The notes beneath the pieces are model-generated. The model had not been told where the DNA came from. It was given only the letters and a program-made list of their open reading frames with translations, and searched no databases. From contig OY761158.1 of assembly GCA_963664405.1 (NCBI GenBank), positions 6,560,001-6,624,000 on the forward strand: 64,000 nucleotides of DNA, read 5' to 3'. Source of the DNA: Thermoanaerobaculia bacterium. Lineage in GTDB: Bacteria; Acidobacteriota; Thermoanaerobaculia; Multivoradales; Multivoraceae. Made by a program: the position numbers and the translations under genes. Below are positions 48,898 through 54,101 of this stretch, piece by piece. The stretch's first letter is position 1. Each line of letters starts with the position of its first letter.

Positions 48898-49950
48898 TTA
48901 GTCGCGGAGAAGCTCGTCGACGGCGGCGCGCTTGATACGATAACTGGAGCCAATCTTCTTCGCCGCCAGTTCCCCGCTGGAGATGACGCTCATTACGTCG
49001 TCCTCGGAGACGCCGAGGATCTCGGCGACCTCTGCCGGAGAGAGAAGCTGAGGAGTTGGCGCTGTAACTGTGCCGGCCGCCGCCGCGCCGCTGAAGAGGT
49101 TGCTGCCCTGCTGCTGCATCATCTGTTGGGCGATGGCGAGGCCGACCGCCATTTCGGTCGCCATGCCGCCGGCGCCGCCGCCGCCGCTGCTCATGCCCTC
49201 CGCCATCTGCAGCTTGACGTAGTCGTTGAGATCGCCAAGGGCTGCCATGCTCGATCGCTTGTCGATAGCCTTCTCGACCTCTGGAGGAACGGAGATGTTC
49301 TCGACCACGAAAGTCGTGATCTCGAGTCCGTACTTCGCCGTGACGGTGGGGTTGATGAGCGGCAAGAGAGCGTCACCGAGCTCCGAGTAGCGGGTGGAAG
49401 CGTCGAGTACGGGGATATTGGACGAAGCCAGGGCGTCGCTAAAGCAGCTGACGATCCTCGAGCGCATGGTGTCGGCGAACTCTTCGAGGCGAAAGTTATG
49501 GTCGGACCCAGCCACTTCTCTGAGAAAGAGCTTGGCGTCGACGATGCGAAAGTCATAGGTTCCGAAAGCCCGCGCCCGAACGATTCCAAAGTCCTCGTCG
49601 CGCATCATGATGGGGTTCGCGGTTCCCCACTTATTGCCGGTGAAAAGGCGTGTATTGAGAAAATAGAGATCTGCCTTGAAGGGGGATTCGAGGCCGTACT
49701 TCCAGGACTTGAGTCGAGTCAGAATAGGGATGTTGTCGGTTTCGAGGGTCCATTTCCCAGGACCGAAGGTGTCACCGAACTCGCCAAGGTAGATGAACTG
49801 CGCTAGCTGAGATTCGCGCACGATCAGTTGGGCGCCTCTCTTGATCGCCTTGTCGTCGTCTGGAAAGCGGTAGGAGAGAACGTCTCTCGAGTCGTCGGTC
49901 CATTCGATGATCTCGAGCAGCTCGCCCTTCAGAAAGTCCAGTATGCCCAT
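48898..49950 (-). CDS. SPFH-domain (YdjI-like) protein with a C-terminal excisionase-type HTH
   Basis: LEIIEW, IKRGAQLIVRESQ, TLETDNIPILT, KWGTANP, RARAFGTY; C-terminal LLSPAEVAEILGVS...GELAAKKIGSSYRI; likely ATG at 49950. Confidence 0.85.
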   Translation of the reverse strand: MGILDFLKGELLEIIEWTDDSRDVLSYRFPDDDKAIKRGAQLIVRESQLAQFIYLGEFGDTFGPGKWTLETDNIPILTRLKSWKYGLESPFKADLYFLNTRLFTGNKWGTANPIMMRDEDFGIVRARAFGTYDFRIVDAKLFLREVAGSDHNFRLEEFADTMRSRIVSCFSDALASSNIPVLDASTRYSELGDALLPLINPTVTAKYGLEITTFVVENISVPPEVEKAIDKRSSMAALGDLNDYVKLQMAEGMSSGGGGAGGMATEMAVGLAIAQQMMQQQGSNLFSGAAAAGTVTAPTPQLLSPAEVAEILGVSEDDVMSVISSGELAAKKIGSSYRIKRAAVDELLRD

Positions 49951-50182
49951 TGGCTTGTATCCTCGTTGGGGGTCGTTTGTCTTGGAGTTGAGCTTGTTCG
50001 CGGCTAGGTAGCGGTCGGGTTCCTGGCTGACGCCAGCGGCTTCAACCTTCGAGGACTTGGGTCTTGATCTTCCAGCCTCGGGCCTCGAACTCGCTCCGAG
50101 CGCGCTCGGAGATGCGACCGGTGAGCCAACCCCTTCTTCAGCCCCGGAAAGGATATCGCTACGCAGGGTCGGCGGCCAGGAC

Positions 50183-50274
50183 TGAGAGTGATCAGGGTAG
50201 TTGATGGGATTCGCCTCTGTTCTAGTCACGGTAGTCGAGGGAAGAGCGTACTGGTCCCTCGGATAGCGTGATCA
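50183..50274 (+). repeat. Transposon left end with three putative transposase-binding motifs
   Basis: TCA(C/G)GGTARTYGAKGG-like motif at 50192 and 50226, plus an inverted copy at 50256-50274 (CCCTCGGATAGCGTGATCA). Confidence 0.75.
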
Positions 50275-50427
50275 AAGCGGGCAAAAGAGCCGGCATCATC
50301 CGCGGCCACCGGGCGCGCCGTTGTTGTGGGGGGGGAGTGAGGTGCCCTCCGGGGGTTGACGTCCCCTCGGAGGGCGTGTCTTCTTTCGTTGAATTTAAAA
50401 ACGAAAGGCCGAAAGGAGACAGCCCTC

Positions 50428-50994
50428 TTGTACCAGACCCTGCTTCAGGATGCCAGTTTCTACGATCTACTGTTGCGACTCGACGAGGATCTAGCGGAGA
50501 AGACTCGCGCCCTAGGCTGCGAATGCGGTGGGCGTTTGCACCAGGCTCACTATCCACGTAAGCCTCGCGGAGGGCCCGAGGAGCTGCGCAGAAGGACCTC
50601 GTTGCGGCTGAGCTATTGCTGCTCGGTGGAGGGGTGCCGGCGTCGTCAGACGCCTGCGTCCTTTCGTTTTCTGGGCCGGAAGGTGTACTTCAGCGTGTTG
50701 GTACTTCTGGTCCCAGTGCTGCGGGAAGGGGCCAAGGGAGAGCGGCTGCATCGTCTACAGGAATTGTTTCAGGTGAGCGCACGTACGGTGCGCCGTTGGC
50801 AGAGATGGTGGCGAGAGGACTTCGGTCTCAGCCCGGTCATGACTCGCTTTCAAGGCTTTCATGCCGAGCCGATCCAGCGGCAAGACTTGCCGGGCTCTCT
50901 GCTCCTAGTCTTTCGTCAATTGTCGCCGGCAGGCGAGAGGGTGCTGGCGGTGATTCGCGCCCTATTGGTCGGGCCCTCTGTGCTAGCTGTGTGA
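50428..50994 (+). CDS. Transposon accessory protein: Cys-rich zinc-ribbon plus HTH
   Basis: AAGGAG then TTG at 50428; CECGGRLH...CCSVEGCRRR; HTH-like RLQELFQVSARTVRRWQRWW. Confidence 0.75.
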   Translation: MYQTLLQDASFYDLLLRLDEDLAEKTRALGCECGGRLHQAHYPRKPRGGPEELRRRTSLRLSYCCSVEGCRRRQTPASFRFLGRKVYFSVLVLLVPVLREGAKGERLHRLQELFQVSARTVRRWQRWWREDFGLSPVMTRFQGFHAEPIQRQDLPGSLLLVFRQLSPAGERVLAVIRALLVGPSVLAV

Positions 50995-51100
50995 GGGTCG
51001 CCGGAAACCCGCAGAAGATGCGTCTCGACTCGCCGAGAAGCGGGCCTTAAGGTCTCTGTTCTCGCCGCCGATTGAAGGAATCGGCGCCCAGGAGAGGGAG

Positions 51101-52525
51101 ATGAGCCATCGAGCCTCGACGCAACAACGCTGGGCGCAGTTTCGCTTCAGTGTGGTGGGTGAGCTGTTGGCTGCGCCTCCCGCACCGGGACATCTGCAGG
51201 TGGAATTGTCTCGACTCTCCCAGAAGGCCTGGCGCCATCCGATCACGGAGAAGGCGGTGTACTTTGCCCGCTCGACGATTGAGCGTTGGTACTACACGGC
51301 CCTGGCCGGTCGCGATCCGATCGGGGCGCTACAACGCCGATCGAGAAGCGACAGCGGCCAAGCGCGCGCCATCCCAACCCGGATCGCCGAGCTGATCCAC
51401 ACGCAATACAAGGCCCACCCGACGTGGAGCTACCAGCTCCATTGGGACAATCTGGACGTGGTGCTAAAAGAGCGACCGGAGCCAGGGAAGGTGCCTTCCT
51501 ACTCCACCCTGCGCCGCTTCATGATCGCGCACGGTTGGCCCAAACAACGACGCACGAAGGGAAAGGATCGCAGCACTGCCTCCGGTGCCCCTGCGCGCGA
51601 GAAGCGCAGCTACGAAGCCGAGTACGTCAACGGGCTCTGGCACCTCGACTTCCACCACGGCTCGCGCAAGATCCCGAGCTCCGCAGGGACCTGGGAAGTA
51701 CCGATGCTGCTGGCGATTCTCGACGATCACTCCCGGCTCACCTGCCATCTGCAGTGGTATCTGCACGAGACCGCCGAGTGTCTGATCCACGCTCTGATCC
51801 AAGCCTTCATCAAACGCGGACTGTGCCGCTCACTGCTCACCGATAACGGCAGCGCCATGATCGCCGACGAGACCACCGAGGGGCTCCTACGCCTCTCCGT
51901 CGTCCATCGCACCACATTGCCCCGGAGCCCCTATCAAAACGGGAAACAAGAAAACTTCTTTTCTCAAGTCGAATCCCGCCTCCTCGCCATGCTCGAAGGA
52001 CACGCGGATCTCAATCTGGCATTGCTCAATGAGGCGACGCTGGCTTGGGTGGAGATGGAGTATCACCGCACCGTCCATTCCGAGACCGGCCAGACGCCGC
52101 TCGACCGCTTTCTCGAGGGTCCCTCCGTCTCTCGGATCTGCCCCAGCCTGGACGAGCTGCGCTTCGCCTTCACCGCCGCTCGAAAGCGCACCCAGCGCCA
52201 AAGCGACGGCACCATCAGCCTCGACGGCACCCGTTTCGAGATCCCCTCTCGTTTCCATCATCTCAACCGGATCTCGGTGCGATACCAGAGCTGGGAGAAA
52301 AGCTCCGTCTTCATGGTCGACGAAAGCTCCGACGTCCCACTCGAGCGCCTCTACCCCCTCGACAAGGCAAGAAACGCTTCCGGCATCCGCCGCCCGATCC
52401 AACCCCAGAGCACCGACGAGCCGACAGGCCCGGAGCCTGGCATCGCACCCCTACTCCGCAAACACATGGCGGAGTACGCCGCCACCGGGCTCCCGCCCGC
52501 CTACCTCAAAAAGGAGACACCGTGA
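51101..52525 (+). CDS. DDE transposase (rve core with Mu-type C-terminal domain)
   Basis: HTH RSTIERWY...RSDSG, SYSTLRRF, WHLDF (D), LDDHSR, TDNGSA (D), NGKQE (E), R...SDGTISLDGTRFEIP. Confidence 0.93.
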   Translation: MSHRASTQQRWAQFRFSVVGELLAAPPAPGHLQVELSRLSQKAWRHPITEKAVYFARSTIERWYYTALAGRDPIGALQRRSRSDSGQARAIPTRIAELIHTQYKAHPTWSYQLHWDNLDVVLKERPEPGKVPSYSTLRRFMIAHGWPKQRRTKGKDRSTASGAPAREKRSYEAEYVNGLWHLDFHHGSRKIPSSAGTWEVPMLLAILDDHSRLTCHLQWYLHETAECLIHALIQAFIKRGLCRSLLTDNGSAMIADETTEGLLRLSVVHRTTLPRSPYQNGKQENFFSQVESRLLAMLEGHADLNLALLNEATLAWVEMEYHRTVHSETGQTPLDRFLEGPSVSRICPSLDELRFAFTAARKRTQRQSDGTISLDGTRFEIPSRFHHLNRISVRYQSWEKSSVFMVDESSDVPLERLYPLDKARNASGIRRPIQPQSTDEPTGPEPGIAPLLRKHMAEYAATGLPPAYLKKETP

Positions 52526-53364
52526 ACAACCAGAAACTACTGGCACTCTTCGGACTTAAGTGGAACCCCTTTACCCCCAACATCCCCGTCGAAGCGCTGT
52601 GGCGACACCCGCATCTCGACCACTTCTGCTGGCGCCTGGAGACCCTCGTCCACGACGGTGGCTTCGCATTGATCTCCGGTGATCCCGGCACCGGCAAGTC
52701 GGTCGCTCTACGCACCCTCGCTCACCACCTTCAACACCTGCCCGACCTGCGCACCGGAGTCCTCACGCGGCCACAGAGCAGTCTCGCCGACTTTTACCGT
52801 GAGCTCGGACAGCTCTTCGGGGTCCCGCTCAATCCACACAACCGATGGGCCGGATTCAAAGCCCTCCGACAGACCTGGCTCTCCCATGTCGATGCCACCC
52901 ATCAAAGACCCGTACTCTTGATCGACGAAGCCCAGGAGCTCGCCGCCAACGTGCTGGCCGAACTGCGCATCCTCGCCTCTGCGGACTTCGACTCACGCTC
53001 CATCCTCACCGTCGTCCTGTGCGGCGACTCCCGACTCACACAGCTCTTCCGACGAGACGATTTCCTACCCGTCGCCAGCCGCATCCGCGTACGCCTCCTC
53101 CTCGACTACCTGCCCCCAGAGACGTTGGCCGAATGGCTCCAGCACTCCCTGACACAAGCCGGAAACCCCAGTCTCCTCGACCACGAGGTCATCACCACTC
53201 TCGCCGAGCACGCCGCCGGAAACCTCAGAGTACTCGCACACATGGCCAACGAGCTCCTCGCCATGGCCGCCAAAGAAGAGCTACCCAACATCGATCAGAA
53301 GCTCTACCTCGAGGTCTTCTCGCCACCTACCTCCCAGCGCTCTCCCAGGAAAGCCCGTGCCTGA
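52522..53364 (+). CDS. ExeA-family AAA ATPase (TnsC/MuB/IstB-like transposition helper)
   Basis: AAGGAG + GTG overlapping the transposase stop; FGLKWNPF, GDPGTGKS, LLIDEAQ, GNLR. Confidence 0.9.
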   Translation: MNNQKLLALFGLKWNPFTPNIPVEALWRHPHLDHFCWRLETLVHDGGFALISGDPGTGKSVALRTLAHHLQHLPDLRTGVLTRPQSSLADFYRELGQLFGVPLNPHNRWAGFKALRQTWLSHVDATHQRPVLLIDEAQELAANVLAELRILASADFDSRSILTVVLCGDSRLTQLFRRDDFLPVASRIRVRLLLDYLPPETLAEWLQHSLTQAGNPSLLDHEVITTLAEHAAGNLRVLAHMANELLAMAAKEELPNIDQKLYLEVFSPPTSQRSPRKARA

Positions 53365-53704
53365 CTCCCCATCCGCCCAGCAACAACGACGGCACCTCCA
53401 GAGCGTCCTCGAGCTCTATCGACGACATCCCCAAACCACCGGACGAGTCAGAAACGCCGATCGCCGCCTCGCCGTACATCTCTATCGAAACGGCGTTACC
53501 CTCGACACCATCAACGCTGCCTTACTACTCGTCGCCGCCAGGAGATGCAACGAGGCACACACCACAACCCCCATCCAGAGTCTCCACTACTTCCTCCCCG
53601 TCATCCGAGAGATTCGCGATAGACCCCTCGATAACGGCTACCTCCGGTACCTTGAAACTCTCATCCGCGACAGCAGCCAAGACCCAGACCATCATTTACT
53701 GTGA
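53357..53704 (+). CDS. Small hypothetical transposon protein
   Basis: GTG overlapping the ATPase 3' end; helical 115 aa (PIQSLHYFLPVIREI); stop lies in the inner right-end motif. Confidence 0.65.
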   Translation: MPDSPSAQQQRRHLQSVLELYRRHPQTTGRVRNADRRLAVHLYRNGVTLDTINAALLLVAARRCNEAHTTTPIQSLHYFLPVIREIRDRPLDNGYLRYLETLIRDSSQDPDHHLL

Positions 53705-53737
53705 TCAGCCCGCCATCGATTACCGTGATCACTCTCA
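53689..53737 (-). repeat. Transposon right end with two putative transposase-binding motifs
   Basis: CCATCATTTACTGTGATCA (53689-53707) and CCATCGATTACCGTGATCACTCTCA (53713-53737). Confidence 0.8.
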
Positions 53738-53742
53738 AGGAC

Positions 53743-53908
53743 CTAGACCAGCGTTTCCAGAGTTCGCGCACATATCTCGGCCCCTTCTGTCCGCTGACGG
53801 CGTTTCGCCTCCTCGACATATTGCCCAATATGCCTGCGTCGGCGCGCCTGGCCAGCGAACAGAATGACCTCGAGCTATTGCACACGAGCTTTGGAAGCGC
53901 TGGTCTAG
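53743..53908 (+). repeat. Palindromic element arm type A, copy 3 (166 bp)
   Basis: CTAGACCAGCGTTTCCAGAGTTCG...CGAGCTTTGGAAGCGCTGGTCTAG; same core; starts directly after the transposon target duplication. Confidence 0.92.
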
Positions 53909-54101
53909 TTCTTCGCGTTCTCGATCGTGGTCGCGGCGGGTCTTGCGGCTGTAGCGGCTGAAGCCGACAGCAGGCCAGCTCCTCGAAAGCTGGGCTCTTG
54001 TTGATCATGACCCTGCCCTATAGTCTATCGAGCCGGGGGGAATGCTGTGGACCGCTCGGTTGTGAGTGAGGTCCCTTATTCGAAAGAGAAGGAGTCAGAA
54101 A

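Follow-up and report, generated by a model that had tools for sequence, protein, structure and literature searches.

An intact Tn6049-family transposon in a Thermoanaerobaculia genome and its probable Mu/Tn7-style, ATPase-regulated mechanism

We analyzed a 64-kb stretch of DNA from a Thermoanaerobaculia bacterium (the window, C1:6560001-6624000 of the genome), which contains a mobile element with four genes. The element is very probably an intact, recently active transposon of the Tn6049 family, compact (~3.5 kb) and free of cargo, which would move by an ATPase-regulated mechanism in the style of Mu and Tn7. As judged from its sequence, it is a Tn6049-family member in all four defining features that we tested. 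It does not represent a new kind of transposon; the family has a name and is poorly characterized. An earlier note, made from the letters of the window alone, had proposed a recent, probably active Mu/Tn7-like element of a poorly described family. The family is indeed uncharacterized and split up by annotation, but one member of the same layout, Tn6049, had been named before.

Results

The Element Belongs to the Tn6049 Family

We compared the element to Tn6049, whose original description is said to be that of Van Houdt in 2009. By tblastn, the transposase matches sequences on pMOL28, pMOL30, the chromid of C. metallidurans CH34 and pHS87a with 48.6% identity across 98% of the query; the plasmid search with this protein returned 151 records, 33 of which cover at least 80% of the query. 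Our family profiles score the Tn6049 proteins at 667 (transposase), 425 (ATPase) and 157 bits (the first open reading frame, ORF1). Genes on the Tn6049 plasmids are annotated as a 'transposase' of 181 residues, an 'IS481 family transposase' of 479 residues, an 'AAA family ATPase' of 277 residues and a small hypothetical protein, and both elements share the order of a small Cys/helix-turn-helix (HTH) ORF, a DDE transposase, an AAA ATPase and a small ORF that overlaps the end of the ATPase gene. The pMOL30 copy, which we located by its published repeats, is 3517 bp long (3555 bp here) and flanked by a CTATCG duplication, and its right end, TGTGCGTGAGCACGAGATTCGATGG, aligns with the ends of the present element. 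TG..CA ends with homologous 20-bp sites, a duplication that is short and varies in length (reported as 4 bp on pHS87a, and 6 bp on pMOL30) and a multi-copy state are common to both. In contrast, the Tn6049 host belongs to another phylum than Acidobacteriota, the terminal bases are TGTGC rather than TGAGAG, and the fourth Tn6049 ORF (90 residues on pHS87a) has no detectable homology to the fourth ORF (ORF4) of our element.

In published reports, Tn6049 is described with 12-bp inverted repeats and a 4-bp direct repeat on pHS87a (PMC4739549) and in 12 copies in CH34 (PMC2864759 and PMC4739549 among the sources). The CH34 genome paper treats the ATPase as a putative secretion ATPase and names it gspA (PMC2864759), the module 'could not be categorized' according to another report (PMC6210171), and a 2012 paper mentions Tn6049-related transposons in Acidithiobacillus (PMC3414803). 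No mechanism is assigned to Tn6049 in the literature searched, which consisted of partial texts and did not cover Van Houdt 2009 or Table S5 of PMC3414803. The earlier note had expected automated annotation to divide such an element into an integrase, a secretion ATPase and hypothetical proteins; the public labels of relatives ('transposase', 'IS481 family transposase' or 'DDE-type integrase', 'AAA family ATPase', 'hypothetical') and the gspA naming in PMC2864759 agree with this.

The family is widespread. Among 8000 candidates scored, 7997 are relatives of the transposase at E<=1e-3, the best 120 of which have 468-495 residues and lie mostly on contigs of ~3.5-4.5 kb. A scan of species-representative genomes gave at least 566 confirmed loci, and we determined gene content by tblastn in the best 80 of these. 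Their hosts are Acidobacteriota, Thermoanaerobaculia, Planctomycetaceae, Eisenbacteria, Verrucomicrobia, Polyangiaceae, several Desulfobacterota, Beta- and Gammaproteobacteria, Bacteroidetes, Campylobacteraceae and Solirubrobacteraceae. ORF1 is found upstream of the transposase gene in 74 loci, and the six misses have less than 310 bp of contig before that gene; the ATPase follows in 79, the sole miss being a contig that ends at the transposase. ORF1, transposase and ATPase form the conserved core, present in every related locus with enough flank. Borders could be drawn from multi-copy genomes for elements in Eisenbacteria (3267 bp), Desulfosarcina (3445 bp, 8 copies), Desulfobacter (3441 bp) and Terriglobia (4426 bp), with duplications of ~3-7 bp (flanks read by eye). 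The Terriglobia member exceeds the usual 3.3-3.6 kb by ~0.9 kb, has TCAG and not TGAG as its left terminus, and shows duplications of 6-7 bp.

A sister group with ~29% transposase identity is present on C. necator pBB2 and on the A. caldus megaplasmid. Its genes are annotated as a DUF6431 protein, a DDE integrase, an ATP-binding protein and a small ORF; the A. caldus record has no ATP-binding gene in its incomplete gene table. The pBB2 ATPase matches that of the family by hhalign (probability 99.2%). Since this sister group shares the layout of our element, the architecture is older than the Tn6049 clade itself.

The Element Has Defined Ends with Conserved Subterminal Sites

The features of the element are listed in Table 1. 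The earlier note had read from the letters TG...CA termini, a terminal inverted repeat matching at 22/25 positions, a ~16-19-bp motif in three copies on the left and two on the right (one inverted), a perfect AGGAC duplication and four uninterrupted ORFs for a zinc finger-HTH protein, a DDE transposase, an ExeA-like ATPase and a 115-residue protein, and all of this was confirmed. The termini lie at 50183 and 53737, a repeat search returned a terminal inverted repeat of 25 nt with 88% complementarity (22/25), and AGGAC is found on both sides of the element. The four ORFs are uninterrupted, with overlaps of 4 nt between the transposase and ATPase genes and of 8 nt between the ATPase gene and ORF4. 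We scanned both strands of the whole window with the 20-mer of the right terminal site (R1), allowing up to 5 mismatches. Exactly five places were found, all of them inside the element ends, in the arrangement described in the earlier note; five matches with 6 mismatches are scattered over the window. The background in other genome sequence is 22 places with up to 5 mismatches per 1 Mb, or ~1.4 per 64 kb, and some of these are ends of a related miniature inverted-repeat transposable element (MITE).

We next aligned 13 ends from seven elements, namely the present element, its MITE, and the Terriglobia, Eisenbacteria, Desulfosarcina, Desulfobacter and Cupriavidus elements. They fit a consensus, TGAGCGTGAnCACGnTAATTGATGG, with a second site that lies 24 bp further inward at the right end and ~34-35 bp at the left. 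The second left site (L2 type) is in register in 6 left ends, and the 24-bp spacing of R1 and R2 is kept in 7 right ends. By this alignment, the end architecture is conserved across phyla.

The Transposase and ATPase Resemble TnsB and MuB

The transposase is composed of N-terminal HTH domains, an RNase H-fold core, a C-terminal beta-strand domain and a tail. In an alignment of 20 family members, Asp-183, Asp-248 and Glu-284 are invariant, as is the tail, APLL..Y-AATGLPPAY, with AATGLPPAY at its end. Searched against solved structures, the transposase profile finds TnsB from the type V-K CRISPR-associated transposon (CAST) ShCAST as its best match (E 1.7e-7, positions 57-220), and retroviral integrases rank after it. 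An AlphaFold model calculated from the 20-row alignment has a mean predicted local distance difference test score (pLDDT) of 56.5 and falls below 50 in the catalytic core; its N-terminal helical domains and the strand domain at 361-419 are of moderate to good confidence, with pLDDT values of 70-84 for the beta strands predicted there. Foldseek searches with this poor model list ShCAST TnsB (1.5e-9), MuA (1.8e-7), IstA (8b4h, 8.3e-7) and E. coli TnsB (2.9e-6), so that TnsB, MuA and IstA rank ahead of the integrases; given the quality of the model, only the ranking is used here. The Pfam family Mu-transpos_C is matched by 8 of the 20 family members (best E 0.0019) and not by the protein in the window.

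The ATPase contains a Walker A (GDPGTGKS) and a Walker B motif (LLIDEAQ), which together with several arginines are invariant in 17 family members. Its profile finds MuB among solved structures (8xvb, E 4.6e-8) over nearly the whole length of the protein (positions 44-262), followed by two RadA entries and an EccA1 entry (E 0.0017-0.0093) and then by ShTnsC (E 0.011); IstB was not found in this search. In a protein panel, MuB scores 36 bits with the ATPase profile. Pfam AAA_22 is matched by all 17 members and is the best match of the first member, TniB is touched by two (best E 0.0021) and IstB by none. The ATPase gene is present in 79 of the 80 related loci and its start overlaps the transposase stop, and therefore the protein would, as part of our overall interpretation and with the same high probability, be a core partner of the transposase and not cargo. 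The best solved relatives of the two proteins, ShCAST TnsB for the transposase and MuB followed by ShTnsC for the ATPase, bear out the Mu/Tn7-like character suggested in the earlier note.

ORF1 Is a Conserved Third Component

ORF1 has a conserved TTG start behind AGGAG. Its invariant Cys and His residues (Cys-31, Cys-33, His-38, Cys-64, Cys-65 and Cys-70) are followed by a hydrophobic helix and an HTH. By hhalign, ORF1 matches the RefSeq DUF6431 protein of the C. necator pBB2 sister element (probability 81.6%, E 1.1e-5), which occupies the same place in that element. None of 17 ORF1 members directly matches Pfam DUF6431 (PF20020), and in the atlas clusters neighboring ORF1, DUF6431 is found in 32-44% of the members. 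The ORF1 profile detects 2628 cluster representatives at E<=1e-3, and 792 at E<=1e-30, among 1.84 billion. Among solved structures it finds no related protein (best E 0.38, to an unrelated one), and a model predicted from the 17-row alignment (pLDDT 65.8) gave no Foldseek match to solved structures at E<=0.001 (best 0.33), so no fold could be assigned. Complex predictions of ORF1 with the ATPase and with transposase residues 340-474 scored 0.00 in two runs, which speaks neither for nor against binding. We also considered ORF1 as a TniQ protein and rejected this assignment, as there is no Pfam TniQ match and no profile match to Tn402 TniQ or to any solved TniQ. ORF1 is as strictly conserved as the other two core genes and has a transposase-type HTH; it would most likely be an end-binding regulator or an architectural factor rather than a TniQ-like target selector.

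Five Near-identical Copies Point to Recent Activity

The genome contains five full-length copies of the element, which are 99-100% identical and have differing flanks. Each is surrounded by its own direct repeat (AGGAC, CCACCG, CTGAG, TCCGG and CTCCT). All four proteins are full-length in all five copies (tblastn). Their identities range from 99.4 to 100% for the transposase, from 99.3 to 100% for the ATPase and from 96.5 to 100% for ORF4, and ORF1 is 100% identical throughout. The five copies are unlikely to have arisen by segmental duplication, because flanks and duplications differ between them. A tblastn search of the genome at E<=1e-3 returned no further transposase or ATPase of the family; remnants comprise a solo right end (C1:395833-395932), 27 nt of a left end and an internal piece of 166 bp.

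We tallied the length of the target duplication over 19 insertions of the family in this genome (5 autonomous and the 14 non-autonomous elements described below). It measures 5 bp in 9 cases, 6 bp in 3, 7 bp in 2, 4 bp in 1 and 3 bp in 1; in the remaining 3 it is absent or 1 bp, and two of these form an abutted pair (see below). The 5-bp duplication of the earlier note thus applies to the copy in the window and as the most frequent length, but not as a fixed one, with 3-7 bp found in the family.

In the public sequencing run X2, one contig of exactly 3555 bp corresponds to 50183-53737 and has a depth of 29.5, compared with 2-3.4 for the flanks, which is the behavior of a multi-copy repeat. Contigs of runs X2, X5 and X6 cross the left junction, and the site is thus occupied in those runs. 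No RNA data are listed among the public sequencing runs over the region. Taken together, five near-identical, intact copies with distinct duplications, and the mobilized derivatives described next, argue that the element is active or was so recently, as the earlier note had supposed.

The Same Ends Flank Non-autonomous Derivatives

Fourteen further elements in the genome carry a perfect 25-bp inverted repeat, TGAGAGTGAGCACGATAATCGATGG, and at both ends their layout is colinear with that of the autonomous element (L1, L2, inverted L3, and R1, R2). Seven of them are MITEs of 477-478 bp, for example C1:410937-411413 (477 bp). The other seven measure 1849 bp, for example C1:2643062-2644910, and consist of the MITE plus an insertion of 1362 bp, which always occupies the same position and is bordered by a 10-bp repeat. 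This insertion encodes a Mutator/IS256-type transposase (Pfam Transposase_mut, E 2.2e-87) and is an insertion sequence (IS) with 4 additional copies outside the MITE. The seven 1849-bp copies are 99.9-100% identical and are found at different sites with their own duplications, and thus the composite seems to move by the MITE ends. Because the genome encodes no other transposase of the family, the five autonomous copies are likely to be the source of the enzyme that moves the MITEs in trans.

Two arrangements of these derivatives were observed in addition. At C1:3800330-3802657, an 1849-bp form and a 478-bp MITE adjoin each other head to tail, separated by one base (...CTCA G TGAG...), and neither is surrounded by a matching duplication. 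The pair could result from insertion next to an existing end, or it could represent a tandem junction; such junctions are known from IS21 and IS30. At C1:6485606-6501609, three MITE copies and one copy of an IS21-type element are found within 16 kb, so that target immunity around existing ends is not apparent, or else the region tolerates insertions.

ORF4 Is Shared with IS21-type Elements

For ORF4, neither Pfam nor NCBIfam gives a family above threshold. Among the 80 related loci, tblastn detects it in 10, and a hidden Markov model of ORF4 gives the same 10. The genome contains ~25 ORF4 paralogs with 41% identity (tblastn), which form the 3' end of a 3390-bp IS21-type element encoding IstA (523 residues) and IstB (266 residues). 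This element is present in ~22 copies of 99.8-99.97% identity (e.g. C1:6498220-6501609). It has four ORFs, in which a Cys-rich ORF of 131 residues, different from ORF1, precedes istA, and a 121-residue ORF4 paralog overlaps the end of istB. Of 201 Acidobacteriota genomes, 11 have a match to the ORF4 profile, including the source genome and one unpublished genome. In the 13 loci examined from other Acidobacteriota genomes, the ORF4-family gene follows istB in 9, a MuB-like ATPase gene in 1 and is of unclear context in 3. ORF4 thus appears to be mostly the third gene of IS21-type elements in Acidobacteriota, with a homolog at the corresponding position in a subclade of Tn6049-type elements, and would be a lineage-specific accessory gene rather than a family-wide component. 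By eye, we saw no conserved clamp-type motif in ORF4; the sole candidate, IQSLHYF, reads PIRSLHYFLP in most homologs. In another Acidobacteriota assembly, a 99%-identical copy of the transposon is interrupted near the transposase start by the IS21-type element with the ORF4 paralog.

Surroundings of the Insertion

A terminator-like hairpin located between the left-end sites and ORF1 (Table 1) might block read-through transcription from outside. Rfam gave no match at E<=1 in 49900-54000, and a scan for sigma-70-type promoters returned 0 sites. To the left, positions 48898-49950 encode, on the minus strand, an SPFH/Band_7_1 protein that has an HTH_17 domain at its C terminus; the transposon is inserted ~230 bp upstream of this gene and may separate it from its own promoter. 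The right flank, 53743-53908, is a 166-bp MITE (CTAGACCAGCG...CGCTGGTCTAG), with the transposon inserted 5 bp from its edge. This flanking MITE has 373 blastn matches in the genome, ~238 of them near full length, and the bin that it mostly fills (53725-53901) reaches a depth of 1100-2900 in public runs, compared with 2-8 for unique flanks.

Table 1. Features of the transposon, in window positions
Feature	Position	Strand	Remarks
Whole transposon	50183-53737	+	3555 bp, TGAGAG...CTCTCA, TG..CA termini; 5 genomic copies with exactly the same borders
Target-site duplication AGGAC, left copy	50178-50182	.	Read from sequence
Left terminal inverted repeat, includes site L1	50183-50207	+	Aligned with ends of 6 other family elements
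Site L1	50188-50207	+	3 mismatches to R1 20-mer
Subterminal site L2, direct	50222-50241	+	5 mismatches to R1 20-mer; 34 bp after L1
Subterminal site L3, inverted	50256-50275	-	5 mismatches to R1 20-mer; 477-bp MITE has the same inverted third site
Terminator-like hairpin	50342-50377	+	14-pair stem, T-rich tail; inverted-repeat search agrees
ORF1, 188 residues	50428-50994	+	TTG start; Pfam HTH_23, E 2.2e-5
DDE transposase, 474 residues	51101-52525	+	Pfam rve, E 2.5e-9; HTH_32
AAA+ ATPase, 280 residues	52522-53364	+	Pfam AAA_22, E 1.8e-22; GTG start overlaps transposase TGA (GTGA)
ORF4, 115 residues	53357-53704	+	GTG start; overlaps ATPase stop by 8 nt; 13 relatives in word-indexed search
Subterminal site R2	53689-53708	-	4 mismatches to R1 20-mer; 24 bp inside R1
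Right terminal inverted repeat, includes site R1	53713-53737	-	Repeat search and end alignment
Site R1	53713-53732	-	Reference 20-mer of the scan
Target-site duplication AGGAC, right copy	53738-53742	.	Read from sequence

Discussion

The element shares with the Mu/Tn7 group, and especially with type V-K CASTs, a DDE transposase nearest to ShCAST TnsB and MuA, an AAA+ partner nearest to MuB and ShTnsC, TG..CA termini, several asymmetrically arranged subterminal sites and a duplication centered on 5 bp. It differs from these systems in that sequence similarity is low (34-36 bits), in its DUF6431-like third protein, and in that it has no TnsA, TniQ, Cas, resolvase or cargo and is not a phage. None of the four ORFs matches TnsA, TniQ/TnsD or resolvase families in Pfam and NCBIfam (Tn552 was covered by families only). 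The element would work like Mu and Tn7, but it does not belong to Tn7, Tn5053 or Mu proper, as TnsA, TniQ and a resolvase are missing and the duplication is variable.

Three other classifications have to be weighed against the Tn6049/Mu-like one, the first being that of an IS481-family IS with passenger genes, in which the ATPase ('gspA', ExeA-like) and the small ORFs would be cargo. NCBIfam indeed returns IS481 as the best model for the transposase (NF033577, residues 53-337, E 1.1e-35), RefSeq labels the Tn6049 transposase accordingly, and the ATPase matches the ExeA-like model TIGR03015 with 88 bits and is read as the secretion gene gspA in the CH34 paper (PMC2864759). However, the IS481 score of 123.6-124.8 bits is far under the 224 bits of the curated cut-off (the IS3 model gives 64 bits, and the IS21 model 44 with a cut-off of 160), the model also matches IS21-type and other transposases in the genome, and TIGR03015 likewise stays below its cut-off of 324.5 bits. 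Our transposase extends ~140 residues beyond the IS481 model at its C terminus, with the beta-strand domain that is recognized as Mu-transpos_C in some family members and with the invariant tail. The ATPase is kept across many phyla, is translationally coupled to the transposase and has MuB as its best solved relative. IS481 elements are known as single-gene elements, in contrast to an element with such an obligate-looking ATPase partner. By the NCBIfam cut-off, the element is not an IS481 member, although its core is closest to that model, and we regard the passenger-gene interpretation as improbable.

The element could also be a stripped-down transposon of the Tn5053/Tn402 or Tn7 type, in which ORF1 would be a TniQ-like selector of a specific type of site. 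A TnsB-like transposase, the weak contact of 2 of the 17 ATPase members with Pfam TniB, and a conserved third gene with a Cys cluster and an HTH, superficially resembling a small TniQ, would fit this proposal, which nevertheless is very unlikely: ORF1 has no Pfam TniQ match and its profile misses both Tn402 TniQ and solved TniQ, resolvase and TnsA are lacking, AAA_22 is matched by every ATPase member, and the 19 insertion sites in the genome share no obvious sequence by eye. That the element is a far-diverged member of IS21, whose IstA-like transposase and IstB-like helper have drifted past recognition, is scarcely credible. Like our element, IS21 combines a transposase gene, followed by that of an AAA+ helper, in a small cargo-free element, and it has TG..CA ends, multiple end sites (three left, two right) and a variable short duplication. 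Foldseek lists IstA, and in Acidobacteriota both types of element can have an ORF4-family gene after the ATPase gene, in the IS21 type behind istB. Yet the IS21 model reaches only 44 of the 160 bits of its cut-off, our profiles match neither the genome's own IstA nor its IstB, so that no sequence relation to these proteins is detectable, and no ATPase member matches Pfam IstB, while the search of solved structures gives MuB and TnsC and Foldseek places TnsB and MuA above IstA. An ORF1-type gene is moreover not known as a family feature of IS21.

Several observations weigh against our interpretation as a Tn6049-family transposon with a Mu/Tn7-style mechanism. The transposase model is poor (pLDDT 56.5) and its Foldseek TM-scores are only 0.14-0.21, and the 123.6 bits to IS481 lie far above the 34 bits to TnsB, so that the core could be called IS481-like. 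In the panel search, the family profiles do not directly reach MuA, TniA or IstA; hhalign of the transposase profile with single sequences gave probabilities of 1.4% for MuA, 3.3% for Tn402 TniA and 0.1% for the genome's own IstA, single-sequence templates being too weak to judge these relations, and only the TniA alignment is colinear over the core and C-terminal domain. The duplication varies between 3 and 7 bp, unlike the fixed length in Mu and Tn7, and the element lacks genes of the resolvase or TnsA type. The R1 site of the MITE differs from that of the autonomous element at 3 of 20 positions, so that cross-mobilization is only putative. Activity is deduced from copies and duplications rather than from transposition itself. 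The earlier note had proposed a search for other copies and for empty sites: the five copies were found, whereas no clean empty site is present in 30 related genomes, none of which is close enough (the best match has 75% identity and covers the neighboring gene only). One contig of run X8, from another study, joins 50096 to 53740 and is the only joint across the element. It provides a weak hint of an empty site, as its right side comprises only 32 nt inside the 166-bp high-copy MITE, and the letters in between are undetermined.

From the sequences and their relatives we infer how the proteins would bind DNA, how ATPase and transposase would make contact, what ORF1 and ORF4 may do and how derivatives could be mobilized in trans. 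The N-terminal HTH domains of the transposase would bind to the 20-bp sites (L1, L2 and inverted L3 on the left; R1 and R2 on the right), and the enzyme would pair the ends and expose a 3'-OH at the terminal CA. The MuB/TnsC-like ATPase, produced by translational coupling to the transposase, would with ATP bind target DNA, which it most likely selects or prepares, and recruit or activate the transposase, probably through the invariant C-terminal tail of the latter, a contact modeled on those of MuA with MuB and of TnsB with TnsC. The ends would then be joined to target phosphates staggered by ~5 bp, and gap repair would yield the duplication of 3-7 bp. ORF1, a DUF6431-related zinc-ribbon and HTH protein, may act as third core component in end binding or architecture, and ORF4 as a lineage-specific accessory protein held in common with IS21-type elements of the same phylum. 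The same machinery would most likely move the 477-bp MITE and the 1849-bp, IS256-bearing derivative in trans. Two modes of transposition may apply, cut-and-paste or a replicative one in which cointegrates are resolved by host recombination.

Counts of Tn6049 in genomes go back to 2009. Our analysis adds the profile links of its module to TnsB and MuB, a three-gene core with a DUF6431-like third gene, the cross-phylum end architecture, the MITE derivatives and the link of ORF4 to IS21-type elements. The family is very large, with at least 566 loci in species-representative genomes and thousands of metagenomic protein clusters. Annotation pipelines mislabel its genes, carrying the ATPase as a secretion protein, and the elements break metagenome assemblies; many relatives are found on contigs of about element length. 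Tentatively, and with a probability that we put somewhat below even, Tn6049-type elements may represent a third, ancient and widespread lineage of AAA+-assisted DDE transposons beside Mu/Tn7/Tn5053 and IS21. This joint reading includes that the DUF6431-type protein would be an obligatory factor, either architectural or a target selector of a new kind, that the IS481-like core with its Mu-type C-terminal domain would form a bridge from single-protein IS3/IS481 elements to ATPase-regulated transposons, and that ORF4 would be a portable accessory for AAA+-dependent transposition in general. With ~3.5 kb, no cargo and three core genes, Tn6049-type elements are among the smallest natural systems that would allow ATPase-controlled DDE transposition to be studied or reconstituted.

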